A stretch of 64,000 nucleotides of DNA from Bacteroidota bacterium. Its GTDB lineage: Bacteria; Bacteroidota; Bacteroidia; Bacteroidales; FEN-979. This document shows positions 28,624 through 63,981 of this stretch, in pieces. Positions within the stretch are counted from its first letter, which is position 1. Each line of letters opens with the position of its first letter. Both the position numbers and the translations under genes were made by a program. Below the pieces are notes generated by a model that was not told the origin of the DNA, made no database searches, and was given only the letters and a program-made list of their open reading frames with translations. The stretch is taken from the NCBI GenBank assembly GCA_026391835.1, contig JAPLDF010000042.1, forward strand, positions 552-64,551. The letters are read 5' to 3'.

Positions 28624-28770
28624 AATAATGCAATCAATGCAAACAATTTAATCAATGCAAGCAATGCAAAAAACAAAACTACAAAGAAAAATTTTCAGAA
28701 TCCATACATCCTTTCATTGTTTGCATTGCATACATTCCTGCATTGCCTGCATTGTTTGCATTCCTGCATT
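28624..28770. repeat. Two opposed arrays of AATGCA-type 8-9 nt units in the pyrH-frr spacer
   Basis: Array A (28624-28668) reads aataatgca atcaatgca aacaattta atcaatgca agcaatgca on the plus strand. Array B (28715-28770) reads AATGCAGG AATGCAAAC AATGCAGGC AATGCAGG AATGTATGC AATGCAAAC on the minus strand, starting 2 nt after the pyrH stop. The two arrays share a perfect 12-nt complement, CAATGCAAACAA. Confidence 0.85.
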
Positions 28771-28772
28771 TT

Positions 28773-29480
28773 TCAGCTAACGACCGTTCCGATTGCTTCT
28801 CCCTTTATAAGTTTCAGCAGGTTGCCTTCATGGTTCATGTTAAACACCACAATCGGCATATTGTTCTCACGGCACAGCGTGAAAGCGGTCAAATCCATGA
28901 TTTTCAAACCCTTCTCATAGGCCTCATCAAAGGAAAGCGTGTCGAATTTCACTGCGGCCGGGTCTTTTTCGGGATCTGCAGTATAAACACCGTCAACCCT
29001 TGTTCCCTTAAAGATGGCATCGGCCTGGATTTCGATGGCGCGCAAGGCCGATGCGCTGTCGGTGGTAAAGTAAGGATTCCCGGTTCCGGCGGCAATTACA
29101 ACAACCTGCCCCTGCATCAGGTGGCTGATGGCTTTCCGCCTGCTCATGGCCTCACAGATTGGCTCAATGGCCAGGCCTGAGAGTAGTTTTACAGTCACCC
29201 CGGTTTTTTCAAGAGCCGCCTGGATGGCCATGCTGTTGATCACAGTGGCAAGCATGCCCATATAATCACCCTGAACACGGTCCATCCCTTCGCTTGTTCC
29301 CTGCAATCCCCTGAAAATATTTCCCCCGCCTATCACCACGGCAACCTCAACGCCTGCTTCAACCACCGATTTGATCTCTGAGGCATAAACAGCCAGGCGG
29401 ACAGGATCAATGCCATAACCCTGGCTTCCTTCGAGTGCTTCTCCTGAAAGTTTCAGAAGAATACGATTGAATTTCATCAT
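28773..29480 (-). CDS. pyrH: UMP kinase
   Basis: 235 aa. RILLKLSGEAL…VVIGGGNIFRG…TVKLLSGLA… is a typical PyrH sequence. Confidence 0.95.
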   Translation of the reverse strand: MMKFNRILLKLSGEALEGSQGYGIDPVRLAVYASEIKSVVEAGVEVAVVIGGGNIFRGLQGTSEGMDRVQGDYMGMLATVINSMAIQAALEKTGVTVKLLSGLAIEPICEAMSRRKAISHLMQGQVVVIAAGTGNPYFTTDSASALRAIEIQADAIFKGTRVDGVYTADPEKDPAAVKFDTLSFDEAYEKGLKIMDLTAFTLCRENNMPIVVFNMNHEGNLLKLIKGEAIGTVVS

Positions 29481-29500
29481 GTTAAGCGTGTTAAAAGGTT

Positions 29501-32500
29501 TTATTCATTGACCCCGTGACAATTCTTATATTTCTTCCCCGATCCGCATGGACAAGGATCATTGCGTCCCACCTTTTTTTCAACTTTCACAGGCTGAGCG
29601 ACGGCCTTTTCCTGCGTATTCGCATTTGATTGCGACAACAGGTCGGAACGCTCTTCACGCATGCGGGCGCGATCCATTTTCCTCGGGGCCTGCGCCTCCT
29701 TGACATTTTCAACCTGGATCGGCACGTCAGCCTTGATCAGGAAGGAAGTTATCTCCTTGTTGGTGCGCTGGACCATGCTTTTAAACAGTTCAAAGGATTC
29801 AAACTTATAGATGAGCAAAGGATCCTTTTGTTCATAAGCGGCATTCTGAACAGATTGTTTCAAATCGTCCATTTCGCGCAGGTGCTCTTTCCAGGCATTG
29901 TCAATCATGCCAAGCACAATTCCTTTTTCAATGCTGAGCACCACCTCCTTACCCTTGTCTTCATAGGCCTTTTTCAGGTTTGCCACGGCCTGCATGGTTT
30001 TCAGTCCATCGGTAACAGGTATGGCAATATTTTCGTACCTGGTGTCATTCTCATAAACATCCTTGATAACAGGGTAGGTCTTTTGGGCGATGTGGTCGCA
30101 TTTGGACTTATAGCGCTTATAAATGTAATTGTATAGCTTGTCACCCAGGTCATCGGTGTTCAGGTTCCCGAAATCTGCTTCCGAGATTGGTGAATCTGCA
30201 GCGAATTCCTTGAGCAGGTCGAGGTTGAAACTATGGAAGTCGCGTTTTTCCTGGGCATCCATGACAATGGTTTCGCACACATCATAGATCATGTTCGAAA
30301 TATCCACGGCAAGCCGGTCCCCGAACAGGGCATGGTGACGTTTCTTGTAGATGGCTTCACGCTGGATATTCATCACATCGTCGTATTCGAGCAACCGCTT
30401 CCGGACGCCAAAGTTGTTCTCTTCAACTTTTTTCTGGGCACGTTCTATTGAGTTGGTGATCATCGAATGCTGGATGACCTCCCCGTCTTTGATCCCCATG
30501 CGGTCCATGATTTTTGCGATCCGGTCGGACCCGAACATACGCATCAGGTCGTCATCAAGCGAAACGAAGAACTGGGAACTGCCCGGGTCTCCCTGCCGCC
30601 CTGCACGGCCGCGCAACTGGCGGTCGACGCGTCGTGACTCATGCCGCTCGGTACCGATAATTGCCAGGCCGCCTGCCTGTTTCACACCCGGGCCAAGTTT
30701 GATGTCTGTACCACGGCCAGCCATGTTGGTGGCAATGGTAACCGTACCTGCACGGCCGGCTTCGGCAACAATTTCCGCTTCACGCGCATGCAGTTTTGCA
30801 TTCAGAACATTGTGGGCAATATTTTTCCGCTTCAGCATCCTGCTGAGCAATTCCGAAGTTTCCACCGAAGTGGTACCGACCAGGCTCGGTCGCCCTTCTT
30901 TGACAAGTTTCTCAATTTCGTCAATAACTGCATTGAATTTTTCCCGTTTCGTCTTGTATACAAGGTCTTCACGGTCATCACGAACAATTTTCTTGTTGGT
31001 TGGAATAACCACCACATCCAGTTTATAGATATCCCATAATTCGCCGGCTTCTGTTTCGGCAGTACCTGTCATACCCGACAGTTTCTTGTACATCCGGAAA
31101 TAGTTCTGCAGGGTAACCGTGGCATAGGTCTGGGTGGCTGCCTCAATCTTCACATTTTCCTTGGCTTCAATCGCCTGGTGAAGTCCGTCGGAATAACGAC
31201 GGCCTTCAAGGATACGGCCGGTTTGTTCGTCAACGATCTTTACCTTGTTGTCCATCACCACGTATTCAACATCCTTTTCAAACAGGGCATACGCTTTGAT
31301 AAGCTGGTTTACCGTATGAACGCGTTCTGTTTTGATGGAATAATCGAGCATCATGGCATCCTTCTTTTCGAGTTTTTCAAGCTCGGACAGATTCCCTCGT
31401 TCAAGTTCTGCGATCAGGAGGCCGATGTCGGGTAAAATATAAAAGCCGGGATCTTCATACGACTGGGTAAGCAGATCGATGCCCAGGTCACGCAATTCAA
31501 TGGTATTGTTTTTCTCATCGATTACGAAATAAAGCTGATCATCGATGAGGTGCATATTTTTCATCTGCTCGGCCATGTAAAAGTTCTCGGTTTTGAGCAG
31601 CAGTGCCTTCATCCCCGGTTCGCTGAGGAATTTAATCAGCGCCTTGTTTTTGGGTAATCCATGATGAGCACGCAGCAGTTGTTCGCCTGCCTTTTTCACA
31701 TTCTCATCATTCTTGGGATCTTCAGAAAGTGCCTTTGCGTCAGCAAGCAACTTGGTTACAAGGTTTCGCTGGGCATTGTAGAGTTTTGTGACATTGGACT
31801 TGAGGTCATCGAACAGCTGGTTTTCGCCCTTGGGTGTGGGGCCTGAGATAATCAGAGGCGTACGGGCATCGTCAATCAATACCGAGTCGACTTCATCCAC
31901 AATGGCATAGTTGTGCGGACGCTGTACCAGTTCCTCGGGATTGCTGGTCATGTTGTCGCGCAGGTAATCGAAACCAAATTCATTGTTGGTTCCATAGGTA
32001 ATATCGGCCAGGTAGGCATCACGGCGGGCCTGTGAATTGGGTTCATGCCGGTCGATGCAATCCACTTTCAACCCATGGAATTCAAACAGGGGCCCCATCC
32101 ATTCAGAGTCACGCTTTGCAAGGTAATCGTTGACTGTAACAATATGAACCCCTTTGCCTGGCAATGCATTGAGATACATCGGGAGGGTGGCAACCAATGT
32201 TTTTCCTTCACCGGTGGCCATTTCCGCAATTTTGCCTTCATGCAGCACCACCCCGCCGATCAGCTGGCAGTCATAGTGCACCATGTCCCAGGTGATCATG
32301 TTGCCGCCTGCCATCCAGCTGTTGCGAAACCTGGCTGTTTCACCATCAATTTCAACGCTGGCTTTCCTTGCAGCAAGATCCCGGTCCGACTGTGTGGCAG
32401 TTACCTCCACAAATTCGTTTTCGAAAAACCTCCTTGCGGTATCCTTCATCACGGCAAATGCTTCGGGAAGGATTTCATGGAGGATCTCCTGTGTCAGTTC

Positions 32501-34210: not shown

Positions 34211-34240
34211 AAATCGTCAATCCAAAATCGTAAATCGTAA
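34211..34240. repeat. Heptamer array (minus-strand TTACGAT type) abutting the coaD stop codon
   Basis: The minus strand reads TAG|TTACGAT TTACGAT TTTGGAT TGACGAT TT immediately after the coaD stop (34241-34243). Confidence 0.7.
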
Positions 34241-37404: not shown

Positions 37405-37432
37405 TCGTAATTCGTAATTCGTAATTCGTAAT
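37405..37432. repeat. 4 perfect heptamers (plus tcgtaat; minus TTACGAA) abutting the rpsB stop codon
   Basis: The minus strand reads TAA|TTACGAA TTACGAA TTACGAA TTACGAT TTTTT starting at the rpsB stop (37432-37434). Confidence 0.9.
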
Positions 37433-38364
37433 TATTTCTTGTTGCTTCTCCCGGCAGGCTTGCTGATACGTTTTCTTGCCGGCTTGTTATCCTCGGGAGC
37501 GGGTTCCAAACCCTTCATTTTGGCCACCTTGGTGTCAACAAAATCCTTTTTCACGATCTTGATGCCATCTTCGTCCACTTCGTCGTCGTCGCCGTCAAGT
37601 AAATGGGATCCCATTCTGCCTTCGAGTTCGTCGCCTTCGCCACGTTCGTCGCTGGCCTCTTTTTTATCGCGGTCGAGTTTGCGTTCCATCAGGCCCTCTT
37701 CCATTGCTCTTACCATTGTATCAACAATAAGGGAAATAGATTTGGAGGCATCGTCATTTGCAGGGATTGGGAAATCAACTGTTCTGGGATCGGAGTTGGT
37801 ATCCACGATCGCAAATGTCGGGATGTTCAGTTTTTTAGCCTCTGCAAGCGCAATGTGTTCTTTGAGGATGTCAACGATAAAAATCGCAGACGGGAGCCGG
37901 TTTAAGTCGGCGATGGAACCTAAGTTCTTTTCCAGTTTGGCGCGTTCACGGGTGATGGTGAGACGTTCCTTTTTAGAAAGGTTGGTATAGGAAGGCGAAC
38001 TCATCAGTTTGTCGATGGAGATCATTTTGCGCACAGCTTTGCGGATCGTGGCAAAGTTGGTAAGCATACCTCCCGGCCAGCGCTCGGTCACGTACGGCAT
38101 GTTGATTCTCTTCACATGCTCGGCTACGATATCCTTGGCTTGTTTTTTAGTGGCAACAAAAAGTACCTTTTTCCCGGCTTTGGCAATCTGTTTCAGGGCT
38201 GCGGCGGCTTCATCCACCTTGGCCATGGTTTTGTACAGGTCAATGATATGGATCCCGTTGCGTTCCATGAAGATATAGGGAGCCATTGCTGGGTTCCATT
38301 TGCGGCGCAAGTGACCAAAATGGACACCTGCATCCAGTAATGCATCAAAATTCGTTCTTGACAT
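37432..38364 (-). CDS. rpsB: 30S ribosomal protein S2 with a long charged C-terminal extension
   Basis: 310 aa. LLDAGVHFGHLRRKWNPAMAPYIF… The C-terminal about 70 aa are acidic then basic. Confidence 0.95.
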   Translation of the reverse strand: MSRTNFDALLDAGVHFGHLRRKWNPAMAPYIFMERNGIHIIDLYKTMAKVDEAAAALKQIAKAGKKVLFVATKKQAKDIVAEHVKRINMPYVTERWPGGMLTNFATIRKAVRKMISIDKLMSSPSYTNLSKKERLTITRERAKLEKNLGSIADLNRLPSAIFIVDILKEHIALAEAKKLNIPTFAIVDTNSDPRTVDFPIPANDDASKSISLIVDTMVRAMEEGLMERKLDRDKKEASDERGEGDELEGRMGSHLLDGDDDEVDEDGIKIVKKDFVDTKVAKMKGLEPAPEDNKPARKRISKPAGRSNKK

Positions 38365-39636: not shown

Positions 39637-42108
39637 ATGGAATATCGCCAAAATGAACAATTGCTCCTGGCAACCGAATTTGTTCAGTGCACGAACAAAA
39701 ACATTTTTTTAACCGGGAAGGCAGGGACCGGGAAAACCACTTTTTTGCATAACCTGAAAAAGATCACCCCGAAACGCATGGTGGTGGTTGCCCCGACGGG
39801 TGTAGCTGCCATCAATGCAGGGGGCGTAACCATTCATTCGTTTTTTCAGTTAAGTTTTGCACCTGCGGTTCCGGCTTCGATACAACCCAGGAACGCCAGC
39901 CATCCGGGGGAAGAAAGGTTCCAGCGAAAATTCAACCGTGAAAAAATCAGGCTCATCAAATGCATTGACCTGCTGGTGATCGATGAAATCAGCATGGTAC
40001 GTGCCGATATCCTGGATGCCATCGATGAGGTGCTGCGCAAATACAGGAACCATTATCTTCCCTTTGGCGGTGTTCAGCTGTTGATGATCGGCGACCTGCA
40101 TCAGCTTTCACCGGTAATAAAAGAGACAGAATGGTCGATTTTAAGAAACTTTTACGAGAGCGCCTACTTTTTTGACAGCCATGCGCTGAAAAAAACAAAT
40201 CCGGTCACCATTGAATTGAAAGAAATTTTCAGGCAGTCGGACAGCCATTTTATCGGGCTTCTAAACAAGGTGCGTGAAAACACCATCGACAGGCAAACCA
40301 TCACGGAATTAAATACCAGGTATATCCCCGGCTTTAATCCCGGCGAGGCTGAAGGGTATATTACGCTGACAACCCACAATGCGAACGCTTATGACATGAA
40401 CCAGGTAAAATTGAAAAGCATTTCCGGGCCGTCACAGTTTTTCCAGGCCGAAATTGAAGATGATTTCCCACCGCATGATTTTCCGACAGAAGAGCAGCTT
40501 GAACTGAGACCAAATGCGCAGGTTATGTTTATCAAGAATGACCTGTCTGCTGAAAAGCAATATTACAACGGGAAAATAGGAAAAATTACCCGTATGACAG
40601 ATGAGCTTGTTTTTGTTAAATGTCCTTCGGATGATGCCGAAATCGCAGTTGGCAGGGTGAGATGGGAAAACGTGAAATATACGCTTGACGAATCAACCAA
40701 GGAAATAAAAGAGAACATTGTGGGAAGTTTCACCCAGGTTCCGCTCAAATTAGCCTGGGCCATAACCATTCACAAGAGCCAGGGGCTTACGTTTGACAAG
40801 GTAATAATCGATGCCAATTCCGCTTTTGCATTCGGGCAGGTATATGTGGCCCTCAGCCGCTGCCGGACCTTTACCGGGATCGTATTGAGCACCCCCATCG
40901 CCGTGTCGGGAATAAAAACAGACGCACTGGTGCTGAACTATTCGCACGAGGCCCAGCAACAGGAACCCGGGCCCGGCGAACTTTTTGAGTCCAAATTCCT
41001 TTACCAGAAAGATTTATTTTTTGAACTGTTTGATTTCAAGTTGACCAGGTACAGGTTTGAAACATTGCTGAAACTTGTCCGGGAGAATCCAAACATCCTT
41101 GATCCTTCGCTGATTACCAACTTACTGGCAATGAAAAACCAATGTGATGCAACACTCTTTGAGGTCGCCGAAAAATTCAAGGTGCAGCTTTCTAATTTAA
41201 TGAAGCCGTTGGTGCTGCCCGAAAACAATGATGATTTGCAGGAACGGACCAGGCAGGCGGTCCGGTATTTTTCAACAACCATCAAAACCCATCTGTCGGG
41301 CAGCCTGGGAAACCTGGCAATCGATACGGATAACAAAGCTGTCAAAAAACTGCTGACCGAAGCGGCAGAAAAATTGCAGAAGGAGGTTTTCATCAGGTTA
41401 TCGTGTCTTGAAAACTGCAAGTTGGGCTTTGAAACCATTTCCTATATCAAAATGAGGTCGAATGCAGATGTCGATTTCCGTCCTTCGGTTCAGCAAAAAA
41501 CGCAGTTTCAGCAACAATCCTCAAAAAGCATCCCTCATCCCGAACTGTATGCCGAACTCAGGAAATGGCGCGACAACCTGGCTGATGAACGAGATATCCC
41601 AAAATACATGGTATTGCCGCAAAAATCGATGCTCGACCTGATGCAAAAATTGCCGGCGACACTTCCCGAATTAAAAACCATCAAGGGGATCGGGCAGGCT
41701 AAAATCAACCAGTTTGGCGAAGAGATCATAACCATCATTAATACGTTCTGCTCCGATCATGATATTGTTCCGGCACAGATTGAAATTCCTGCAGTGGAGA
41801 AGAAAGCCAAAGTGAATTCAGGGAAACTCAGTTTTGAGATGTTCAGGGCTGGTAAAACAGTCGCAGAAATTGCCGCGCTGCGATCCCTTTCGACCTCAAC
41901 CGTCGAAGGTCATCTGGCGCCCTATGTAGGAACAGGGGATTTGATGGTAAGTGAATTTGTACATGCTGAAAAATTGAACCGTGTGCTGGATTACATCAGC
42001 GCAAATCCCCATAAAACCCTGGGTGAAGTTAAAAGCGCCATGGGTGATACCGTTACCTATGCGGATCTGAAATTTATTTTTCAGCATTTAAGCCATTTAA
42101 ATTCATGA
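39637..42108 (+). CDS. PIF1/RecD-family ATP-dependent DNA helicase with C-terminal HRDC-like and HTH-like domains
   Basis: 823 aa. Walker A GKAGTGKTTF, then VVAPTGVAAINAGGVTIHSFF, LVIDEISMV, FGGVQLLMIGDLHQLSPV and AITIHKSQGLTFDKVII. The C-terminal segment ELYAELRKWRDNLADERDIPKYMVL…IKGIGQAKINQFG is HRDC-like. Confidence 0.85.
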   Translation: MEYRQNEQLLLATEFVQCTNKNIFLTGKAGTGKTTFLHNLKKITPKRMVVVAPTGVAAINAGGVTIHSFFQLSFAPAVPASIQPRNASHPGEERFQRKFNREKIRLIKCIDLLVIDEISMVRADILDAIDEVLRKYRNHYLPFGGVQLLMIGDLHQLSPVIKETEWSILRNFYESAYFFDSHALKKTNPVTIELKEIFRQSDSHFIGLLNKVRENTIDRQTITELNTRYIPGFNPGEAEGYITLTTHNANAYDMNQVKLKSISGPSQFFQAEIEDDFPPHDFPTEEQLELRPNAQVMFIKNDLSAEKQYYNGKIGKITRMTDELVFVKCPSDDAEIAVGRVRWENVKYTLDESTKEIKENIVGSFTQVPLKLAWAITIHKSQGLTFDKVIIDANSAFAFGQVYVALSRCRTFTGIVLSTPIAVSGIKTDALVLNYSHEAQQQEPGPGELFESKFLYQKDLFFELFDFKLTRYRFETLLKLVRENPNILDPSLITNLLAMKNQCDATLFEVAEKFKVQLSNLMKPLVLPENNDDLQERTRQAVRYFSTTIKTHLSGSLGNLAIDTDNKAVKKLLTEAAEKLQKEVFIRLSCLENCKLGFETISYIKMRSNADVDFRPSVQQKTQFQQQSSKSIPHPELYAELRKWRDNLADERDIPKYMVLPQKSMLDLMQKLPATLPELKTIKGIGQAKINQFGEEIITIINTFCSDHDIVPAQIEIPAVEKKAKVNSGKLSFEMFRAGKTVAEIAALRSLSTSTVEGHLAPYVGTGDLMVSEFVHAEKLNRVLDYISANPHKTLGEVKSAMGDTVTYADLKFIFQHLSHLNS

Positions 42109-42127: not shown

Positions 42128-43522
42128 ATGTACGGACGGCTTCTGAGTAACAATCTTTCTCGCGTCAGGCCATTTTGTATCCTGGGGGCCAAAGGTGTGG
42201 GGAAAACGACATTGATCAGTGATTTCGCTTTGAAATTCAGCAACTGGATCCACCTCGACCTTGAAACAGATGCCGATCGCGCAATTTTTCAACCCGGCGC
42301 CACCTCCGGTGAGACACTTCGGGCAATAAGTTTTTTAAAAGGCAGGGAGATCAGGGGAAAAGGGACGCTCATCGTGCTCGATGAAATTGGGAAATGCCCG
42401 GAGGCGATCAGGTGGGCGGGCGGACAGGCGGACGGGCGGACGGGCGGACAGGCGGACGGGCGGACGGGTGGACAGGCGGACGGGCGGACAGGCGGACAGG
42501 CGGACGGGCCGGTGGTGGTAGCGACTTCATCAATCATGACAAAGGAATTATTGGTATTATTGAACAATGAAAAGGAGGTGATGCATCCATATTATCTGCA
42601 TCCCTTTTCCTTTGAAGAGTTTTTGATGGTCATGGATGATCCTGCTTCGATGGAATCTTTCCGCGAGGTTCCCGTACCATATTATGCCTATGATAAATTA
42701 CTGAACTATTTTCATCTCTATGCCCTGATCGGCGGAATGCCCGAAATTACCGGGGCCTATGCGAAAAACCGGCATCTTTCGGGATTGAAAAACATTTACG
42801 GGCAAATCGAAGAACGCTACATGCAGTGCCTGCCGTTTGTTACTGCCGGAACAAAAAGCAGGGACCTTGCCATGGAAGTGTTGCAAAACACCTACCCTTA
42901 CGCTGCCACCCGGATCAGTTTCAACCGGTTCGGGAACCTGGAAAAAGGGAGCAGGGAAATCTCCCGGGCCTTCAAAGCCCTCGAACGGATCTTTCTGCTT
43001 CAAATGATCTACCCGGTTACATCACCCATCTTACCCATGGCTCCTGATACTTCCAAATTTCCAAGATTGCAGCTGCTCGATACCGGGCTGGTGAACTATT
43101 TCTCAGGCATTCAGAAGCCCCTGTTCCAGTCGCATGACATGAATGCGATTTTTGAAGGGCAAATTGCCAGGCAGGTTGTGGGACAGGAGATCCTGGCAAC
43201 CATGCCGGAGGCGTCAGGCCCCTGTTTCTGGGTAAGGGATAAGGCACAGTCCTCGGCATCTGTTGATTTTGTGATCCCGTTCGACGGCATGCTTATTCCG
43301 GTTGTGGTAAGGTCAGGGGAAGCCGGGAGGTTGCGGTCGCTGCACCAGTACGTTGACGAGTCGCCCCATCCTTTTGCTGTCAGGCTTTATGCCGGGAAAC
43401 CTGGAATTCAGCAAACTTCCACCATCAGGGGCAAGAAGTATTATCTCCTGAGCCTCCCCTATTTCCTGGCAGGAAAGATCAGGGAACACCTGGGAGGATT
43501 CAGGAAATTCGTAGAGGGGTGA
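42128..43522 (+). CDS. AAA+ ATPase (COG1373-type, AAA_14 plus DUF4143-like) carrying an in-frame octamer-repeat insertion
   Basis: 464 aa. P-loop GAKGVGKTTL, Walker B LIVLDEIGKCPEA, then 4x GGQADGRT encoded by the GGCGGACR array, then VVVATSS… It starts 19 nt after the helicase stop. Confidence 0.75.
   Translation: MYGRLLSNNLSRVRPFCILGAKGVGKTTLISDFALKFSNWIHLDLETDADRAIFQPGATSGETLRAISFLKGREIRGKGTLIVLDEIGKCPEAIRWAGGQADGRTGGQADGRTGGQADGRTGGQADGPVVVATSSIMTKELLVLLNNEKEVMHPYYLHPFSFEEFLMVMDDPASMESFREVPVPYYAYDKLLNYFHLYALIGGMPEITGAYAKNRHLSGLKNIYGQIEERYMQCLPFVTAGTKSRDLAMEVLQNTYPYAATRISFNRFGNLEKGSREISRAFKALERIFLLQMIYPVTSPILPMAPDTSKFPRLQLLDTGLVNYFSGIQKPLFQSHDMNAIFEGQIARQVVGQEILATMPEASGPCFWVRDKAQSSASVDFVIPFDGMLIPVVVRSGEAGRLRSLHQYVDESPHPFAVRLYAGKPGIQQTSTIRGKKYYLLSLPYFLAGKIREHLGGFRKFVEG
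42419..42506 (+). repeat. 11 tandem GGCGGACR octamers inside the AAA+ ATPase CDS (degenerate flanks 42411-42514)
   Basis: Read directly: GGCGGACA GGCGGACG GGCGGACG GGCGGACA GGCGGACG GGCGGACG GGTGGACA GGCGGACG GGCGGACA GGCGGACA GGCGGACG. With the 24-nt super-period it translates as GGQADGRT repeats. Confidence 0.95.
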
Positions 43523-43527: not shown

Positions 43528-43585
43528 GAATGATGAATGTGGGAATAACGAATGGAGAAAGGACGAATGGGGAAATGATGGATGG
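43528..43585. repeat. Degenerate 7-8 nt GAATG-periodic array starting 5 nt after the AAA+ ATPase stop
   Basis: GAATG or GAAATG at 43528, 43535, 43550, 43565 and 43572, plus GAATA at 43543 and GATGG at 43580. Confidence 0.55.
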
Positions 43586-43626
43586 AAACCGGCAAATGTA
43601 AGCGGGGGTGTCCAACGATTTTTCTT

Positions 43627-44666: not shown

Positions 44667-44766
44667 CAGCCAGAAAAGTGGACAGATTTGATTGATTGCA
44701 ACCACTGGAAAAAAATGCTAAAACAAATTTTCCTCCCTTCAATCGCAAATCAACTTCATTTAATTC

Positions 44767-44798
44767 ATTCGTAATTCGTAATTTATAATTCGTAATTC
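44767..44798. repeat. Heptamer array attcgta x4 (one degenerate) just upstream of the metK start
   Basis: attcgta attcgta atttata attcgta attc. This is the reverse complement of the TTACGAA unit found after rpsB and coaD. Confidence 0.85.
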
Positions 44799-44805
44799 TT
44801 TTATT

Positions 44806-46149
44806 ATGGGATATTTATTTACATCGGAGTCCGTATCAGAAGGACATCCGGACAAAGTTGCCGATCAGATATCAGATGCCCTGCTTGATGAGTTCATGAA
44901 ATGGGATCCGGAATCGAAAGTGGCATGTGAAACATTTGTGACCACCGGGCTTGTTGTTTGCGGTGGTGAAGTAAGGACACAGGGCTGGGTTGATGTCCAG
45001 GAAACGGCCCGCCGCGTCATCCGCCAGATCGGGTATACAAAGGCGGAATACCGCTTCGACTGCGACTCATGCGGGGTGATCTCCACCATTCATGAACAGT
45101 CTGCAGATATCAACCAGGGCGTTGTCCGCGAAAAGAAGGAAGACCAGGGTGCCGGCGACCAGGGAATGATGTTCGGCTATGCCTGCAACGAAATGGAAAA
45201 CCTGATGCCGATGTCGATCGAACTGGCGCATATTTTCCTGCAGGAACTAGCCGAGATCCGTCGCGAAGGCAAGCAGATGAAGTACCTGCGCCCCGACAGC
45301 AAATCGCAGGTGACCATTGAATATGATGACCATGGAAAACCGATGCGTATCGACACCATCGTGGTAAGTACCCAGCATGATGATTTTATCCAGCCTGCAA
45401 CACAGACAGCAAAGGCTGAAAAGGCCGCTGAAAAAGCGATGCAGGACAAAATAAGGGATGATGTGCAGAAAATACTGATCCCCAGGGTTAAAAAAACCCT
45501 GCCTGCGAAAATACAGAAACTCTTCCAGGGTGATTTCAAACTGCATGTGAACCCAACCGGAAAGTTCGTGATCGGCGGTCCTCATGGCGATACCGGCCTC
45601 ACCGGGCGCAAGATCATCGTTGATACCTATGGCGGACACGGCGCCCACGGTGGTGGTGCTTTTTCCGGCAAAGATCCTTCAAAGGTCGACCGTTCAGCCG
45701 CCTATGCAGCCCGGCATATTGCAAAGAACATGGTTGCCGCAGGTGTTGCCGACCAGGTACTGATCCAGGTTGCCTATGCTATTGGGGTTGCACAACCGGT
45801 CGGTCTTTATGTCAACACGTTCGGAACCGCAAAAGTGAAAGACAAAAAAGGCAACATCCTCCAGGATGGGGTGATCGCCGAAAAAATCAACAAAATTTTC
45901 GACATGCGCCCCTATGCGATCGTTGAGCGTTTTGGCCTGAAGAATCCGATCTATCAGCCAACCGCTTCCTACGGTCATTTCGGACGCGATTTTTATAACA
46001 AAGAGGTGGAAGTTTTTTATCCCGTGAAAGGTTCAAAACCTAAGAAAGTCAATGGAAATGGTAAAGATGTATATACAAAAAAGGTCGACTTCTTTGCCTG
46101 GGAAAAGCTTGATTACACAGACAAACTCAGGAAAGAATTCGGGATTTAA
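44806..46149 (+). CDS. metK: S-adenosylmethionine synthetase
   Basis: 447 aa. [33 protein letters not shown] and [22 protein letters not shown]. Confidence 0.95.
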
Positions 46150-46150
46150 C

Positions 46151-47053
46151 GTGAAGTTGACCCACCTGGTTTTTCTGACTTCACTGTGTCTGATTTCTTT
46201 ACCCGGCCTTGCGCAGATTGACATTCAGCGCTATACCACTGCAACTGATACCTTCTATTGGAAGCGATATATCCATATTCCGAAACCGCCCAGGCTGAAC
46301 CTGCGGCGGTTTTCGGTTTCTCACCCATCCAAACATATCGATTTGTTCCTTGCGGGAAACATGGGTCAATTTCCGCAATTCACCAATGATTCAACACACC
46401 GGCATTCTGCCAAAGATCTGAAAAAATGCCTGTTCCCGGCCGATATCAATGGCGATAAACTGCCTGACATGATTTTCAGCGGGAACAATGGAGGCGGGTC
46501 GGATATTGTGAGAATATGGCTGAATAAACGGGACAGCTTTGAGCTCATCTTTGAAGACTACCAGTACATATCAAAATTCACAAAGACAGGAAATAAACTT
46601 GTGGAACTGCAGACCGGAGACGCCGGGGATGGCGACAACTATCTCTATTTCACCCGTGACTATCGTGTTGGCGAGGATAAGAATGAGCCAATGTTCATCA
46701 AAGGCAAACAGGTTGTAGCCTACAAATATACCGAGGAACCTGCTAAATACTACCCCCAGCCGATTCCATTCCTGGCAAAGGCTGATACCATGTTACTGCG
46801 GGCTTCTGCCGCCATGCAGAATGAGCCATTTAATCCGCAACTCAACACTTTTGGAAACATCATTGCAAAATACCGCACCAAAGCGCGTGGCCTTGTCCTT
46901 GCTTATGCTTCGAATGGAAAAGGGAATGACTGGTTTTTTGTCGAGGTTTCGCCTGCAGCAATGCCTTCGGCGTCGATCCTGTATGATATCGACAAGATTC
47001 CCACGTTTATCCGTGGCTGGGTTTCAAGCCAGTCGGTTCAGCTGGAGCCTTAA
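46151..47053 (+). CDS. Hypothetical secreted protein (one FG-GAP/VCBS-like DINGDKLPD motif)
   Basis: An in-frame GTG lies 1 nt after the metK stop and is followed by the signal peptide KLTHLVFLTSLCLISLPGLAQ. The upstream part of ORF 46052.. overlaps metK and is discounted. Confidence 0.55.
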   Translation: MKLTHLVFLTSLCLISLPGLAQIDIQRYTTATDTFYWKRYIHIPKPPRLNLRRFSVSHPSKHIDLFLAGNMGQFPQFTNDSTHRHSAKDLKKCLFPADINGDKLPDMIFSGNNGGGSDIVRIWLNKRDSFELIFEDYQYISKFTKTGNKLVELQTGDAGDGDNYLYFTRDYRVGEDKNEPMFIKGKQVVAYKYTEEPAKYYPQPIPFLAKADTMLLRASAAMQNEPFNPQLNTFGNIIAKYRTKARGLVLAYASNGKGNDWFFVEVSPAAMPSASILYDIDKIPTFIRGWVSSQSVQLEP

Positions 47054-50681: not shown

Positions 50682-50710
50682 GGGTTAGGTTTTAGGTGGA
50701 CATGTTAACG

Positions 50711-50766
50711 GGCGGACAGGCGGACGGGCGGACAGGCGGACGGGCGGACGGGCGGACAGGCGGACA
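50711..50766 (+). repeat. 7 tandem GGCGGACR octamers, 30 nt upstream of the Smr gene start
   Basis: GGCGGACA GGCGGACG GGCGGACA GGCGGACG GGCGGACG GGCGGACA GGCGGACA, read directly. Confidence 0.95.
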
Positions 50767-50799
50767 GGTCGTTGTGAAACATATATTTTTTTCAGACGG

Positions 50800-53679: not shown

Positions 53680-53700
53680 CCTTAAATTAATGAATCAGTG

Positions 53701-53740
53701 AAATGGCGAAATAGATTTTATTTCGCCATTTTGCTTTTTT
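53701..53740 (+). terminator. Perfect 13-bp hairpin plus T-tract between convergent genes (overlaps the rdgB stop)
   Basis: AAATGGCGAAATA (53701-53713) / loop gattt / TATTTCGCCATTT (53719-53731), followed by tgctttttt. Confidence 0.7.
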
Positions 53741-54311
53741 GCCATTTTACCATTTTATCAATGGCCCTCCCCCGGTGGCTTATCCCGTTTTTGAGGTAGG
53801 CGGGCATCGCGGCAAAGGTTTGACGATGGCCATCGGGCCTGAATACAGGATCATACCCAAAACCATCCGCACCTTCCTTTTCGGTTGTAATCACCCCGTC
53901 GATCCTGCCTTCAAAAAGTTGTTCCGCCCCATCCATGATCAGGCAGATGACACAGCGAAAGCAGGCTTTGCGGTTCTCAATTCCTTCCAATTCACGGAGA
54001 ATTTTGGTTACATTGTCATCAAAACTACAGCCTTCGCCGGCATAGCGCGCCGAATAAACACCCGGGCGGCCCTCAAGGGCCTCGATCTCCAGCCCGGTAT
54101 CATCGGCAAAACAGTTCAACCCGGTAATTCCGTGGATAAACCGGGCTTTCTGGACGGCATTTCCTTCAATTGTTTCCTGGGTTTCGGGGATGTCAACATC
54201 CAGGTTCACGTCTTTCAGGCTGAGAATTTGAAGATCATTCCCCATAATCTCCTGAACTTCACGAAGTTTATGGGTATTGTTGGTGGCGAAGAGGAGGTTG
54301 GGCATGATCAA
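53718..54311 (-). CDS. rdgB: Non-canonical purine NTP pyrophosphatase (RdgB/HAM1 family)
   Basis: 197 aa. LLFATNNTHKLREVQEI, FADDTGLEIEAL.GRPGVYSARYAG and FGYDPVF. Confidence 0.85.
   Translation of the reverse strand: MIMPNLLFATNNTHKLREVQEIMGNDLQILSLKDVNLDVDIPETQETIEGNAVQKARFIHGITGLNCFADDTGLEIEALEGRPGVYSARYAGEGCSFDDNVTKILRELEGIENRKACFRCVICLIMDGAEQLFEGRIDGVITTEKEGADGFGYDPVFRPDGHRQTFAAMPAYLKNGISHRGRAIDKMVKWQKSKMAK
53725..53756. repeat. 4 octamers RCCATTTT (minus AAAATGGY) encoding the last 12 codons of rdgB
   Basis: gccatttt gctttttt gccatttt accatttt. The minus strand translates as KMVKWQKSKMAK-stop. Confidence 0.75.
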
Positions 54312-54339
54312 TTAGCAAAATGGTGAAATGGTTTGTTCC

Positions 54340-55445: not shown

Positions 55446-56033
55446 ATGGATTTTTTAGGATTTCTTTTTTCAAAAAAATTTCTCAGGCATTTCCTCATTG
55501 CCATCGGGATAACGCTGGCCTTAATATGGATTGTATTACAATCACTTGCATGGTATACGAAGCACAATGACTACATCGTTGTTCCCGATTACCGGGGATT
55601 GTCATTTGTTGAAGTACAGTCAAATCCTGAAAATGTCAATTACCAGTTCAATGTGATTGATTCGATTTTTGATGCCGATAAGCCGAAGGGGTCCATTCTG
55701 TCGCAGGATCCGTTCCCGGGGGCGAAAGTCAAGAAAAATCGGATGGTATACTTAACCATCACCTCCATGGTGCCGGAAAAAACAACCATGCCCGAACTGC
55801 GCGACCTTACGTTGCGGCAGGCACAGTCGATGCTGGAATCCGCAGGACTGAAACTTGGGAAATTGTCCTATATAAAATCATTTGATGAAGACGCAGTTCA
55901 AAATCAACTGTTTAAAGGACGAATTATAAAAGCAGGAACCGTGCTTGACAAAGGTTCTGTGATCAACCTGTCTATTGGCATGGGCGCAAAAGCTATGATC
56001 GATTCGCTGAAGGTGGATAGTTTGGAGGAATAG
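55446..56033 (+). CDS. Membrane-anchored PASTA domain protein
   Basis: 195 aa. An N-terminal TM helix is followed by two PASTA-like units (VVPDYRGLSFVEVQ…, MPELRDLTLRQAQSMLESAGLKLG…). Confidence 0.75.
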   Translation: MDFLGFLFSKKFLRHFLIAIGITLALIWIVLQSLAWYTKHNDYIVVPDYRGLSFVEVQSNPENVNYQFNVIDSIFDADKPKGSILSQDPFPGAKVKKNRMVYLTITSMVPEKTTMPELRDLTLRQAQSMLESAGLKLGKLSYIKSFDEDAVQNQLFKGRIIKAGTVLDKGSVINLSIGMGAKAMIDSLKVDSLEE

Positions 56034-56035
56034 AC

Positions 56036-56091
56036 GGGCGGACAAGCGGACAGGCGGACGGGCGGACAGGCGGACAGGCGGACGGGCGGAC
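56036..56091 (+). repeat. 7 tandem GGCGGACR octamers starting 2 nt after the PASTA gene stop
   Basis: GGCGGACA AGCGGACA GGCGGACG GGCGGACA GGCGGACA GGCGGACG GGCGGACG, read directly. Confidence 0.95.
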
Positions 56092-58164: not shown

Positions 58165-59202
58165 ATGGACGATAAACCCGAAATTCCTGAAGAATCCAGT
58201 GAATTATTTGAACATTTCCGATTTGTAGTCGATCGCGGGCAAAATCCGCTGCGTATCGATAAATACCTGATGGCGAAAATTGAAAATGCCTCTAGGAACC
58301 GGATACAAAACTCGGCGCATGCCGGAAACATCCTTGTGAATGATGTGGTGGTCAAGCCCAATCACAAAGTGAAACCCCTTGACATTATCACCATTGTACT
58401 GGCCTATCCTCCCCGTGACACAGAGGTTTATCCCGAAAATATCCCCATCTCCATCGTTTACGAGGACCATGACATCATGGTGATCAACAAAGCGCCGGGA
58501 ATGGTGGTACATCCCGGTCATGGCAACTTCACGGGGACCCTGCAGAATGCCCTGCTTTACCATTTGCAGCAAACCAACCCGGATGATCCTGATGCAAAGC
58601 CCTATCTTGTTCACCGGATCGACAAAGATACCAGCGGGATCATGCTGATTGCCAAGAATGAACTGGCGCAGTCAAAAATCGCAAAACAGTTTTTCGACCA
58701 TACCATCGACCGTACCTATGTGGCGCTCGTGTGGGGAAATATCGATCACGATGAAGGAACCATCGATGCAAATATCGGCCGGGACATCCGCAACCGCCTT
58801 GTGCAGGCTATTTACGACGACCCGGAGAAAGGCCGGCATGCGGTTACACACTACCATGTCCTTGAGCGCTTTGGATATGTAACCCTGGTCGAATGCCGGC
58901 TTGAAACGGGCCGCACACACCAGATCAGGATCCATTTCAAGCACATCGGGCATACGTTGTTTAACGATGACAGCTATGGCGGCTCTGAAATCCTGAAAGG
59001 CACCACCTTTACCAAGTATAAACAGTTTGTAAATAACTGCTTTTCGCTGATTCCCCGCCAGGCCCTGCACGCCAAATCGCTGGGATTTATTCATCCCACC
59101 ACCAAAGAATTCATGCATTTCGACTCTGAATATCCCGCCGACCTGGCGGCGGCCATTGAAAAATGGAGACAATATGGGAAGGGGTTGGTGAATGAGGAAT
59201 GA
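58165..59202 (+). CDS. rluD: RluA-family 23S rRNA pseudouridine synthase (RluD-like) with an N-terminal S4 domain
   Basis: 345 aa. Contains LVHRIDKDTSGIMLIAKN and RTHQIRIHF, with an S4-like RIDKYLMAKIENASRNRIQ. Confidence 0.85.
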   Translation: MDDKPEIPEESSELFEHFRFVVDRGQNPLRIDKYLMAKIENASRNRIQNSAHAGNILVNDVVVKPNHKVKPLDIITIVLAYPPRDTEVYPENIPISIVYEDHDIMVINKAPGMVVHPGHGNFTGTLQNALLYHLQQTNPDDPDAKPYLVHRIDKDTSGIMLIAKNELAQSKIAKQFFDHTIDRTYVALVWGNIDHDEGTIDANIGRDIRNRLVQAIYDDPEKGRHAVTHYHVLERFGYVTLVECRLETGRTHQIRIHFKHIGHTLFNDDSYGGSEILKGTTFTKYKQFVNNCFSLIPRQALHAKSLGFIHPTTKEFMHFDSEYPADLAAAIEKWRQYGKGLVNEE

Positions 59203-59256
59203 CAAATGACAAATGACAAATGACAAATGACGAATGATGAATTATGAAGGATGAAC
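59187..59256. repeat. About 10 heptamers (NNRAATG; core ACAAATG x4) spanning the rluD stop and the plsC start
   Basis: GTGAATG AGGAATG ACAAATG ACAAATG ACAAATG ACAAATG ACGAATG ATGAATT ATGAAGG ATGAACA. The rluD TGA (59200-59202) and the plsC ORF ATG (59244) both lie inside the array. Confidence 0.85.
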
Positions 59257-59996: not shown

Positions 59997-60177
59997 AGCG
60001 GCCCTTCCGTCTGCATTCTCATCTTGGCAATTGGTTGTTCATTTTGACATATTGGCATTGTAAAATTACAAAAACTGCCTTTTTGTCTTATTTCGTTTGA
60101 TTTTTTTCACTGGTATATTGTTTGACTTTTCCCGGGAAACAATAAAATTTCACACACTTAATATAGGAGATAAAACC

Positions 60178-60603: not shown

Positions 60604-60627
60604 CCTGTCCGGAGGCTATCACGAGAA

Positions 60628-60656
60628 AAGGCGACCTGTTTGGTTGCCTTTTTTTG
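60628..60656 (+). terminator. Rho-independent terminator of the hsp20 gene
   Basis: AAGGCGACC / tgttt / GGTTGCCTT (one G-U pair) followed by TTTTTG. Confidence 0.7.
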
Positions 60657-60703
60657 TTTTTCATTGATCCAATGGATCCTCAGGCATTCCATATCTTTGC
60701 AGG

Positions 60704-61678: not shown

Positions 61679-61681
61679 GGA

Positions 61682-62746
61682 TCAGAAAAAATGGCGGAAA
61701 GGCAACAGGATCCATTCAAAGATTTTCTCAATCATTGGCCGGCGTTTCCATTCCAGGTAATCAAGTTCCTGCGAGTTCCGGACGGTTTCGGCAATATGTT
61801 CGCGCAGCTGGCGTAAAATATCGGGCTCCGATCCGATCAGGGCAATTTCATACTGGTACCGGAAGCTGCGGAAATCGAAGTTGGCGCTGGCAATCGAAAA
61901 TATTTCATCATCAATGACCAGCAGTTTGGCATGCAGGTTATGCGGGAGATAGAAAAGCAACTTGATGCCTGCATCGTGCAGCAGCCCGAGGTATTTGTTC
62001 CGCAGGATGTCAACCATCCGCATATCGGAATGTTTCGGCATGATAACCGCAACCTCCACGCCGCGTTTACTGGCATCCATCATGGCTTTCCGAAGCAGGA
62101 AACCGGGCAGGAAGTAAGGGGTTTCAATCACCACCGAGGTTGCCGCCTGCCGGATAAGCTGGGTATATCGTTTCCTGAGCCGCTGGAATTGGATGGAAGG
62201 GACATCGCGGATAATTTCAAAGTTACCCGACCTGATCTTCCGGGTGTAGGTGACTTTGTTTGTAATGATAAACGGGTTGAAGGCATTGAAATTTTCAAGA
62301 AACACCTTTTTGAACGCAACGGCGATCTCGCCCTCCATGCGCAGGCACAACTCCCGCCAGTTCAGGTTGTAGCCTGTGATGTTGGCCGATCCGATATAAC
62401 TGACCAGGTCATCAATCACAAGTATCTTGCGGTGGTCACGCCGGTGCCCCCGGGTAAAAATATCACTGTTTATCTTTATCTTCTCGAAAAACTTCACCTC
62501 ACCGCCAAGCCTGATAAGTTCGGTAAAAAAAGTTTCCGAAACCGGTCCCCTGCCCCACGAATCCACAAGGATTTTGACCTTGACACCTTCCTTTGCTTTT
62601 TTTGTGAGCGCATCGCGAAAACGCACCCCCATGTGATCGTTGGCAAATTTGTACGTCTCCAGGAAAACATACTCCTTTGCCTGGGCTATATCAATAAGCA
62701 TCAGGTTATAAAACTGCAGTGTATCATCAATTACCCGGAATTCCAT
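61682..62746 (-). CDS. Phospholipase D-family protein (cardiolipin synthase ClsB-like), two HKD motifs
   Basis: HRKILVIDDLVSYIGSANI and HAKLLVIDDEIFSIASANFD. Confidence 0.8.
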   Translation of the reverse strand: MEFRVIDDTLQFYNLMLIDIAQAKEYVFLETYKFANDHMGVRFRDALTKKAKEGVKVKILVDSWGRGPVSETFFTELIRLGGEVKFFEKIKINSDIFTRGHRRDHRKILVIDDLVSYIGSANITGYNLNWRELCLRMEGEIAVAFKKVFLENFNAFNPFIITNKVTYTRKIRSGNFEIIRDVPSIQFQRLRKRYTQLIRQAATSVVIETPYFLPGFLLRKAMMDASKRGVEVAVIMPKHSDMRMVDILRNKYLGLLHDAGIKLLFYLPHNLHAKLLVIDDEIFSIASANFDFRSFRYQYEIALIGSEPDILRQLREHIAETVRNSQELDYLEWKRRPMIEKIFEWILLPFRHFF

Positions 62747-62987
62747 TTGAATGCAAATTTCCTTTTTCTACCTCATCTCCCCGAGAGACAGTCTCAAAAG
62801 CCTGAAAACCTATCTTCACTGCGAAGACGCCAAGATGCAAAACCAGAACATCAATAATTTTATTTTTAGCGTCTTTGGGTCCTAGGTGTATAAATTGACT
62901 TTTGATACAACCTCAAAGTTTTGTTCAAATTTAATGAAAAGGATCAACCCGGAAGACATGGCATCCCTGAATTGTATAAATTTTACG

Positions 62988-62995
62988 TAAGTTTG
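62988..62995 (+). promoter_or_regulatory. Candidate -7 box TAAGTTTG upstream of yicC
   Basis: Exact TAnnTTTG match, 17 nt upstream of ATG 63012. Confidence 0.45.
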
Positions 62996-63011
62996 CTTAA
63001 AAAAGAGCGAA

Positions 63012-63893
63012 ATGATCAAATCCATGACCGGTTACGGTAAAGCTGTCCTTGATATTACCGGGCGGAAACTCACCATCGAGATCAAAACACTTAACAGCAA
63101 GCAACTTGACCTGAACATGAAAATACCGGGATATTTCAGGGAAAAGGAGTGGGAGGTGAGAGGTATGCTTACCCAGCGGTTTGACCGGGGCAAAATCGAT
63201 TTTTACATCGGGACAGAAGTAACCGGCGAGATGCTGAATTACTCAATCAACCACGCTCTTGCGAAAAAATACCACGCAGAACTGAACAGCCTCGCCAGCG
63301 AACTTCATGAGGGCGGACAGGATTTGCTTTCGCTTGTACTTAAAATGCCGGATGTAATGCAAACCAGCCGCGACGAGTTAAGCGAACACGACTGGCCTTC
63401 CATCGCCGGTGCCATTGATGATGCCATCACCCAGGCAGATTTGTTCCGTATCAATGAAGGGAAAGTGCTGGAGGAGGATATGATGAACCGTGTGAACAGC
63501 ATATTGAAGCTTCTTGAAGAGATTGAGCCTTATGAAAAGAGGCGGATCATCGATTTGCGCGAGCGTTTGCTGCGTGATTTCTCGAAATATTCCGGCGATT
63601 TTAACGGCTCAGCCCCCGACCAGAACCGATTTGAGCAGGAGCTGATCTATTACCTCGAAAAGCTTGATATCACTGAAGAAAAAGTCCGCCTGATGAAACA
63701 TTGCAGGTATTTCCTGGCAACATTGCAGGAAGCGGTTTCACAGGGTAAAAAACTCGGATTCGTAACCCAGGAAATGGGCCGCGAAATCAACACCATCGGG
63801 TCGAAGGCCAGTGATGTGGAGATACAGAAAATCGTCGTACAGATGAAGGATGAGCTGGAGAAGATCAAGGAGCAGTTGGGCAATATACTTTAA
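63012..63893 (+). CDS. yicC: YicC/YloC-family protein (stress-induced endoribonuclease family)
   Basis: 293 aa. MIKSMTGYG at the N-terminus and a C-terminal GFVTQEMGREINTIGSKA motif. Confidence 0.85.
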   Translation: MIKSMTGYGKAVLDITGRKLTIEIKTLNSKQLDLNMKIPGYFREKEWEVRGMLTQRFDRGKIDFYIGTEVTGEMLNYSINHALAKKYHAELNSLASELHEGGQDLLSLVLKMPDVMQTSRDELSEHDWPSIAGAIDDAITQADLFRINEGKVLEEDMMNRVNSILKLLEEIEPYEKRRIIDLRERLLRDFSKYSGDFNGSAPDQNRFEQELIYYLEKLDITEEKVRLMKHCRYFLATLQEAVSQGKKLGFVTQEMGREINTIGSKASDVEIQKIVVQMKDELEKIKEQLGNIL

Positions 63894-63981
63894 TGCAAAC
63901 AATGAAAACAATGCAGACAATGCAGATAATGCAGACAATGCAAATAATGCAGACAATGCAAATAATTTAAAAAAATGCAAC
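63892..63981 (+). repeat. 10 tandem nonamers AATGCARAY beginning inside the yicC stop codon
   Basis: (T)AATGCAAAC AATGAAAAC AATGCAGAC AATGCAGAT AATGCAGAC AATGCAAAT AATGCAGAC AATGCAAAT AATTTAAAA AATGCAACC. Confidence 0.95.

Follow-up and report, generated by a model that had tools for sequence, protein, structure and literature searches.

Why should short tandem repeats collect at the ends of ordinary housekeeping genes? The question is raised by a 64,000-nucleotide stretch of a Bacteroidota genome (positions 552 to 64,551 of the forward strand of contig JAPLDF010000042.1, assembly GCA_026391835.1), which we analyzed at its full length and refer to as the window. A preliminary description of this DNA had drawn attention to at least 13 arrays of 7- to 9-nt units, spread over about 35 kb and most of them abutting stop codons. 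The function and the spread of bacterial tandem arrays with 5- to 11-nt units have been open questions since the heptamers of cyanobacteria were described. We consider it reasonably likely that the arrays of the window belong to this known class, as slippage-made short-unit repeats that resemble the short tandemly repeated repetitive (STRR) sequences of cyanobacteria, that they are a clade trait of uncultured freshwater Bacteroidales, and that they serve largely as neutral spacer filler, with occasional structural co-option.

Arrays in the window and in related genomes

We screened the whole window with Tandem Repeats Finder, counting as strong any array with a period of 5 to 12, at least three copies and a score of at least 40. 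Ten strong arrays were found, whereas 100 first-order Markov shuffles averaged 0.04 and never gave more than 1. The program's calls coincided with 12 of the 13 positions listed in the preliminary description, all of which fall within 35 kb; the thirteenth, at 54316-54333, was missed by the program, had been seen by eye alone and is a remnant of about two copies. No strong array was found in positions 1-28000, which consist almost entirely of two very long surface-protein open reading frames (ORFs) plus a few other genes.

The unit families are as first described. GGCGGACR occurs at three loci (42417-42509, 50708-50768 and 56033-56091), as does [A/T]TCGTAA, which is equivalent to TTACGAW (34211-34240, 37405-37433 and 44767-44798). 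AATGCARAY forms three arrays (28624-28668, 28715-28770, which is inverted, and 63892-63981), and units containing AATG are found at 43528-43586, where they are degenerate, at 53720-53756 and at 59187-59256. The observation that GGCGGACR is always G-rich on the plus strand holds at its three loci, which are too few for a strand bias.

Several candidate patterns were set aside. Plus-strand G-richness was dropped as a signal of the replication strand, given the small number of independent spacers, the existence of inverted pairs and a direction of replication that is not known. A 24-nt higher-order pattern common to the three GGCGGACR arrays, which would have indicated block copying, was also dropped, as the A or G at the variable position differs by locus. 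Finally, a scan for sigma-70 promoters returned matches at or below the shuffle level, and the sigma-70 model is unsuited to Bacteroidota.

To place the arrays in a wider context, we scanned for related loci with the ddl protein, using one genome per species, and obtained 29 loci; a metagenome scan with ddl added 21 more, among which there were no same-species contigs, the best identity being 80%. The closest loci (64-81% ddl identity) belong to uncultured freshwater Bacteroidales, some labeled Prolixibacteraceae or Draconibacterium, and the window organism is itself an uncultured freshwater Bacteroidales. Gene order is kept across the relatives' loci. Arrays of 7- to 9-nt units were present in relatives down to about 60% ddl identity and almost absent from more distant Bacteroidales loci; their density was 1.85 per 10 kb in the clade loci (443 kb), compared with 0.51 in outgroup loci. 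In 446 kb of sequence from 23 nonredundant syntenic loci we counted 88 arrays, with copy numbers that range from 3 to 25. They are almost exclusively intergenic, 83 of the 88 lying outside ORF interiors, though intergenic DNA makes up 8.3% of the sequence. The periods in the 443-kb set were 7 nt (38 arrays), 8 nt (38), 9 nt (6), 10 nt (2) and 11 nt (1), with none of 2 to 6 nt. As a separate observation, a distant locus of the candidate phyla radiation recovered by the ddl scan (Candidatus Curtissbacteria; L030, L049 and L050, the L numbers denoting the loci and contigs compared with the window) carried five arrays of 7- to 9-nt units in 21 kb, and arrays of short units may also be common in further lineages without cultured members.

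The same spacers attract arrays in several genera. In the synteny table, an array was present in the plsC-rluD spacer in 9 of 17 genomes, between the PASTA-domain gene and the type IX secretion system (T9SS) gene in 9 of 18, in the ddl-rdgB spacer in 11 of 17, in the convergent rdgB-GDSL spacer in 10 of 17 and in the divergent fadL-DUF2027 spacer in 13 of 15, where it often takes the form of inverted pairs; the metK leader is a further hot spot. The rluD-T9SS, PASTA-ddl, GDSL-fadL and T9SS564-T9SS247 spacers, whose lengths are conserved, held no octamer or long array in the same table. The hot-spot spacers are shared, yet the unit at a given hot spot changes from genome to genome; of the unit families, [A/T]TCGTAA is clade-wide. 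Array-free versions of hot-spot spacers are short (10-19 nt for ddl-rdgB in four relatives). In some relatives, then, the array is missing and the spacer very short, so that no array is indispensable at its site.

One unit recurs at several loci, and some contigs of metagenome-assembled genomes end inside arrays (L002, L012, L015, L017 and L056), as might be expected of assembly artifacts or of fragments of a mobile element, either a MITE (miniature inverted-repeat transposable element) or a repetitive extragenic palindromic (REP) sequence; descent from such a family had been named from the outset as an explanation that would undo the finding. We looked for similarity among the 120-nt flanks of all 13 arrays and found none, which argues against a mobile element with conserved ends. 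An Rfam scan of the whole window matched a SAM-II riboswitch alone and gave no match at the arrays. Orthologous spacers hold arrays in over 20 genomes that were assembled independently, among them the chromosome-level assembly L019 (OY820914.1), and the one array that lies in a gene is in frame and is matched by orthologous proteins. Furthermore, three Logan contigs (runs SRR20698638 and SRR20698639) that are 100% identical to the window reproduce two arrays exactly, and the copy number of the array at 59187-59256 is the same in two independent Logan assemblies. Mobile debris or faulty assembly is therefore an extremely unlikely source of the arrays.

The arrays do nevertheless disturb assembly. 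One Logan contig ends inside the GGCGGACR array at 56033-56091, as would be expected where identical k-mers occur at three loci, and five contigs from metagenome-assembled genomes and Logan assemblies start or end within an array (L002, 1-55; L012, 2513-2598; L015, 11822-11912; L017, 11079-11176; L056, 1-30). Arrays therefore break short-read assemblies, metagenomes included, and are probably undercounted in the draft genomes of the clade. Among their other practical effects, they lengthen ORF calls through stop-free units and change C-terminal tails. In L055, a stop-free array lengthens the call of the DUF2027 gene from 354 to 444 amino acids.

Placement beside stop codons

Within the window, 9 of the 13 arrays contain a stop codon or sit within 6 nt of one, as judged against Pfam-supported genes. 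The eight stop-linked genes named in the preliminary description (pyrH, coaD, rpsB, the ATPase gene, rdgB, the PASTA-domain gene, rluD and yicC) were borne out, and ddl makes a ninth. Placement at gene boundaries, claimed for the whole family, holds for most of its members; three arrays depart from the stop-codon pattern, one lying inside a gene (42417-42509), one between two starts (50708-50768) and one in the metK leader (44767-44798).

We therefore asked how arrays are placed in the related genomes. In the 40 array-bearing same-strand spacers of the syntenic loci, the median gap between the array and the upstream stop codon was -0.5 nt, with 21 arrays overlapping the stop codon and 33 lying within 12 nt of it; on the other side, the start codon of the next gene stood a median of 18 nt away. 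Arrays sat closer to the stop than to the start codon in 32 spacers, with the reverse in 8 (p = 1.8e-4). The preliminary description was right that the arrays are a nonrandom family gathered at the ends of genes. Arrays were equally frequent in divergent spacers (14 of 71) and same-strand spacers (40 of 196), at about 20%, and occurred in convergent spacers (8 of 81) at about half the same-strand rate.

The stop codon is often part of the repeat itself. Among 34 stop-abutting arrays, 17 carried the gene's own stop triplet, in the sense orientation, within the consensus unit, versus 5 in an antisense control. Units of this kind follow ddl (TAGCCAT, ATTAGAA, CACTTAA and GCAATGA) and rluD (AATGACA, AGTGACA and GAGTGAC), and the unit of the array at 59187-59256 holds ATGA, in which a start and a stop codon overlap. 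A single array fills the entire ddl-rdgB spacer of L007 and L044, keeping an unbroken 7-nt phase between the TAG stop codon and the ATG, and its unit drifts by steps: TAGGCAT gives way to TGGTCAT, then to TCGTCAT and finally to TCGTAAT. Stop-containing units are therefore connected to the TTACGAW family.

These observations suggest a simple account of the placement. Replication slippage or unequal exchange would make and maintain the arrays, which would survive only where the sequence is unconstrained. A tandem duplication running from the last codons of a gene through its stop codon would leave the protein unchanged and hence be invisible to selection; duplications within genes would shift the reading frame; and duplications next to the following gene would disturb initiation, the promoter and initiation region of that gene thereby shielding the start side. 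On this account, the neutrality of duplications that take in the stop codon and the protection of the next gene's start side would together press arrays against stop codons.

Units of 7 or 8 nt would shift the reading frame, and some arrays extend into the last codons of a gene or into a start codon, features that could also serve a contingency switch in which slippage of the copy number toggles the flanking genes or alters their C termini. A slippage-prone expression switch had indeed been among the roles first put forward. However, copy numbers are equal between the window and the three Logan contigs and in near-identical genomes (L025, L040 and L046; L017 and L042; L054 and L055; range, 97.5-100% identity), and the neighbors are housekeeping genes such as rpsB, pyrH, coaD, ddl and rluD. 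Moreover, the first unit holds the first in-frame stop codon, and the copy number therefore leaves the protein unchanged. We regard such a switch as very unlikely.

How arrays change, share units and fold

Comparisons between related genomes showed how the arrays evolve. L007 and L034 (93% identical) have compound arrays in common that are set apart by point changes and by indels of 14 nt and 9 nt, and L012 and L044 (99.2% identical) differ by substitutions inside units. Arrays thus gain and lose whole units and accumulate point mutations, and at any one site they are absent from some relatives. In L054 and L055, which are 99.67% identical assemblies of one species from two samples, copy numbers are equal, including those of a 17.4-copy array. 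Judged from these alignments, array evolution appears to be of the slippage type and to proceed at a moderate rate, without the hypervariability of contingency loci. The sole length difference between L054 (18792-19003) and L055 (18792-18832) is a 171-nt indel between two direct ACCCGTTT arrays, which reflects either recombination between the arrays or assembly collapse.

The units themselves are shared in a way that depends on their length. Octamers at different loci of one genome were at most one base apart in 36% of pairs (31% when over 1 kb separated the loci), compared with 5% between genomes and 0.8% for letter-shuffled units, and none of 2,000 label permutations matched this result. Heptamers showed no genome effect, 13% of pairs being at most one base apart both within and between genomes, versus 3% for shuffled units; their likeness above the shuffled level arises because the [A/T]TCGTAA family is clade-wide. 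We suggest that octamers at unlinked loci of one genome may be kept alike by ectopic gene conversion or similar copying between arrays of 60-150 nt, which we assume as a conservative guess; a trans-acting factor is the alternative.

This alternative can be put more broadly. The arrays might be multisite platforms for a sequence-specific protein or RNA, or products of a templated repeat-adding activity, whose specificity drifts between species. The genome-specific octamers at unlinked loci, the clade-wide [A/T]TCGTAA unit and the excess likeness of heptamer pairs would all agree with this, and a like pattern, equally unsolved, has been described for the Xanthomonas unit GGGAATC and the Nostoc unit GGGGAYT (PMC4692102), while binding proteins have been proposed for TAACTGA repeats (PMC4679880). 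Yet the analysis yielded no candidate factor, each site examined can do without its array, and the orientation of arrays relative to genes is inconsistent. Units drift gradually inside single arrays, as expected without tight sequence selection, and in L052 and L054 the coding array in the ATPase gene keeps GGCGGACR though the intergenic octamers have diverged. We therefore consider this explanation quite unlikely. In its strongest form, a lineage-specific trans-acting system would sustain the arrays and spread one octamer both to unlinked spacers and to a tolerated loop of the ATPase, making them a managed feature instead of neutral slippage debris, and to this too we would give little credence. 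The genome-specific octamers are the one feature that could hide something new, and if homogenization does need a dedicated factor, that would add something new to the biology of bacterial genomes.

The coding array deserves separate mention. It is the largest array of the window, a 93-nt insert (42417-42509), in frame and of a length divisible by 3, in the AAA_14/DUF4143 ATPase gene at 42128-43522, and it encodes (GGQADGRT)n, three 8-nt units making one octapeptide. It interrupts the AAA_14 domain past the Walker B region, and when it was deleted in silico the AAA_14 match became contiguous (profile positions 4-129). All orthologues with 61-79% identity carry 1 to about 7 copies of a GGQADGRT-like octapeptide at this site, which largely accounts for their range of lengths (426-525 amino acids), and homologues at 60% identity or less have none. 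At the DNA level, the site is of the GGCGGACR type in the window, L052 and L054 and holds a related G-rich octamer in L053.

Could the arrays instead be functional structures at 3' ends or between cistrons? Inverted pairs might fold into long hairpins, which could end transcription, stop 3' exonucleases or insulate neighboring genes, and G-rich octamers might form G-quadruplexes. Several inverted pairs are indeed predicted to fold strongly: the pyrH-frr pair (28624/28715; fold of 28595-28775 on the minus strand) at -50.4 kcal/mol (z -3.75), the yicC array at 63892 with its inverted partner at -51.7 kcal/mol (z -6.2), and the yicC-gmk spacer of L004 at -65.4 kcal/mol (z -8.5). At the end of rdgB, the units and an inverted copy give a terminator-like hairpin, in which a T-run comes after a stem of 18 bp (53697-53735). 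The spacing G2-N1-G2-N3 in GGCGGACR could, on sequence grounds, permit a two-tetrad quadruplex, and the gene that adjoins one array, upstream of the ATPase gene (39637-42108), encodes a PIF1-like helicase with HRDC and HTH_40 domains. The PIF1-like family unwinds G-quadruplexes, although a tie between this helicase and the G-rich arrays is speculation.

Against a general structural role, most arrays have a single orientation and form no hairpin. Only the rdgB hairpin among the arrays fits the form of an intrinsic terminator, a G+C-rich stem-loop with a U-run at a gene end; the inverted AATGCA pairs give long A+U-rich hairpins without a clear U-run, and single-orientation arrays do not fit that form. 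Ordinary intrinsic terminators are present elsewhere in the window. Hairpins are not conserved, the yicC-gmk spacer of L009 and L031 holding single-orientation arrays that fold no better than shuffles (z -0.3 and -1.1), in contrast to the hairpins of the window and L004. Relatives without an array at a given site are common, one array lies in a 5' untranslated region, and the equal array frequency in divergent and same-strand spacers is hard to reconcile with the general termination signal first envisaged. The octamers of relatives (e.g., AAGTGGAC and GGTGAACA) are poor quadruplex formers. We thus regard a structural function as an unlikely explanation of the arrays as a whole, while a minority, including the terminator-like one, may have been put to use as long hairpins, and most would have no site-specific function.

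The metK leader (44672-44805) consists of a SAM-II (long-loop) aptamer, then the conserved segment tttcctcccttcaatcgcaaatca and, after it, a heptamer array that ends 7 nt ahead of the ATG, the distance from the end of the aptamer to the start codon being about 75 nt. The position and the unit of this array are kept in about 13 related genomes, four of which have an added GGTRACAG octamer array between the aptamer and the heptamers.

Several points weigh against an origin in slippage with largely neutral persistence. Slippage alone leaves it unexplained that one octamer is common to unlinked spacers of a genome, and the gene conversion invoked above is an assumption. The [A/T]TCGTAA heptamer is kept across genera and the metK leader keeps its position and sequence, so that the conserved heptamer could reflect selection. 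Arrays persist at given spacers although nucleotides have diverged by about 20-25%, a long time for a compact genome to keep neutral DNA. In addition, the genome-wide statistics are drawn from two syntenic regions whose loci are not phylogenetically independent, and gene starts were set by a simple ORF rule, on which the spacer counts depend. Even so, of the roles first suggested, the footprint of a repeat-generating process lies closest to the evidence, and the switch and the general terminator are not supported. The clade offers a comparative system, with more than 20 syntenic genomes carrying arrays in matching spacers, in which whole-unit gain and loss, stop-codon inclusion and octamer homogenization can be read directly.

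Gene context and comparison with known repeats

Pfam matches gave the minus-strand gene order frr, pyrH, secA, a TlpA-like gene, coaD, an outer-membrane protein gene, ubiE, tsf, rpsB, rpsI and rplM, followed by the genes for the PIF1-like helicase, the AAA_14/DUF4143 ATPase and an ABC ATPase and by metK with its SAM-II riboswitch. Later genes include DUF2027/Smr, fadL, a GDSL lipase gene, rdgB, ddl, the PASTA-domain gene, a T9SS cargo gene, rluD, plsC, hsp20 and yicC. The individual arrays are listed in Table 1. The inverted partner arm of the last of them lies past the end of the window, at 1849-1909 of L001 (a Logan contig identical to the window where the two are shared), just ahead of gmk.

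Table 1. Position and setting of each tandem array in the window
Array	Position	Strand	Setting
AATGCAAWC, ~4.8 copies	28624-28668	+	30 nt upstream of frr start (28594, minus strand); one arm of inverted pair
AATGCA family, inverted	28715-28770	-	2 nt past pyrH stop (28773-28775, minus strand); second hairpin arm
TTACGAT (AAATCGT on plus), ~4.3 degenerate copies	34211-34240	-	Directly after coaD stop TAG (gap 0); 18 nt short of next ATG
TTACGAA, 4.1 perfect copies	37405-37433	-	Shares last base of rpsB stop TAA; rpsB-tsf spacer
GGCGGACR, 11.6 copies, 93 nt	42417-42509	+	In frame within AAA_14/DUF4143 ATPase gene
GAATGNN, degenerate	43528-43586	+	5 nt past ATPase stop; Tandem Repeats Finder row with period 15, score 50
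ATTCGTA, 4.6 copies	44767-44798	+	metK 5' untranslated region, between SAM-II aptamer (44672-44731) and ATG at 44806
GGCGGACR, 7.2 copies	50708-50768	+	Divergent spacer, DUF2027/Smr (start 50681, minus) / fadL (start 51014, plus)
AAAATGGY units (GCCATTTT on plus strand)	53697-53756	.	Array 53720-53756 encodes last ~12 codons of rdgB; convergent GDSL/rdgB spacer
Two-copy remnant ACCATTTC ACCATTTT (gene sense)	54316-54333	-	6 nt past ddl stop
GGCGGACR, 7.4 copies	56033-56091	+	Begins inside PASTA-domain gene stop codon; ends 35 nt ahead of next gene
AATGACA/GAATGAN, ~9.6 copies	59187-59256	+	Covers rluD stop (59200-59202) and plsC start (59244)
AATGCARAY, 8.3 copies	63892-63981 (feature to 64000)	+	Overlaps yicC stop TAA

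Three other ORFs of the window may be recorded here. The two giant ORFs in positions 1-28000 are both on the minus strand: one (3-13181) has at least 4,393 codons, exits the left end of the window and carries PKD, Ig, Big_9 and SprB-repeat domains, and the other (15653-20938) has 1,761 codons with PKD, Ig and Fib_succ_major domains. Neither contains short-unit arrays, and both probably encode giant surface adhesins. A plus-strand ORF of 333 codons (46052-47053) has no Pfam match and, as called, overlaps the end of metK by 98 nt; it shows 59-74% identity in relatives, where the overlap is kept, and reflects either a miscalled start or a real overlap. No tRNA genes were found in the window.

How, then, do the arrays compare with known repeats? 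The STRR heptamers of cyanobacteria, with the units CCCCAGT, TTGGTCA and CAACAGT, were reportedly described by Mazel and coworkers in 1990. They too form a few heptamer families, are tandem, occupy many intergenic loci per genome and have no known function, but they have other units and are known only from heterocystous cyanobacteria.

The broader class is that of 5- to 11-nt simple sequence repeats (SSRs), defined by Mrazek, Guo and Shah in 2007 from genomes rich in such repeats, with prominent heptamers and a proposed origin in polymerase slippage (as summarized in PMC4679880). By that summary, the arrays studied here resemble these SSRs in their head-to-tail units, prominent heptamers, lineage-specific enrichment in nonpathogens, mostly intergenic location and proposed origin by slippage. 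They are in excess over chance, lie at many loci with enrichment in a lineage, and keep units of lengths not divisible by 3 out of coding DNA, all of which are marks of the class. They differ in that octamers are as frequent as heptamers and in that the host clade lies outside the lineages named in the summary.

MacGregor (2015; PMC4679880) described intergenic arrays of the heptamer TAACTGA in Beggiatoaceae, cyanobacteria and a few Bacteroidetes. Like them, the present arrays include intergenic heptamers, extend to Bacteroidetes, have ribosomal-protein genes among their neighbors, differ between strains in 7-nt steps and include arrays of mixed heptamers. The TAACTGA repeats, however, lie mostly just upstream of start codons in the forward orientation, whereas ours lie on the stop side; two tandem TAACTGA units, with two mismatches allowed, had no match in the window.

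The closest parallel is with the G-rich heptamer arrays, GGGAATC in Xanthomonas and GGGGAYT in Nostoc, reported by Rehm et al. (2015; PMC4692102), to which no function has been assigned. These are likewise intergenic, lie mostly 0-50 bp from a stop codon and sometimes overlap it. In both cases related species hold arrays of variable length and sequence in matching spacers, some copies are inverted, a single unit family is found at many loci of a genome, and there is no tie to gene classes or mobile elements. The author of the preliminary description knew of no described element with such stop-abutting placement; because Rehm et al. had already described it, it is not new for the class, and our stop-gap values agree with theirs. 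Inclusion of the stop codon in the duplicated segment is a simple neutral account of this placement and may apply to Xanthomonas and Nostoc as well. There are also differences. The Rehm arrays, with G3-4 tracts in their units, tend toward four copies and fold into quadruplexes in vitro, whereas most units here are without G3 tracts and occur in widely varying copy numbers; neither TTACGAW, AATGCARAY and AATGACA nor GGCGGACR (GG and GGG tracts only) has the G3-4 tract per unit in preferred sets of four. The Rehm arrays are also underrepresented between divergent genes, where ours are as frequent as between genes on the same strand.

We found no paper on these repeats in the present clade. Taken together, the comparisons place the arrays beside known short-unit repeats, and their new features are the lineage of the host, octamers that are as prominent as heptamers, the unit families themselves, the presence of the stop codon within units, the long hairpins formed by inverted arrays and the in-frame octapeptide array.

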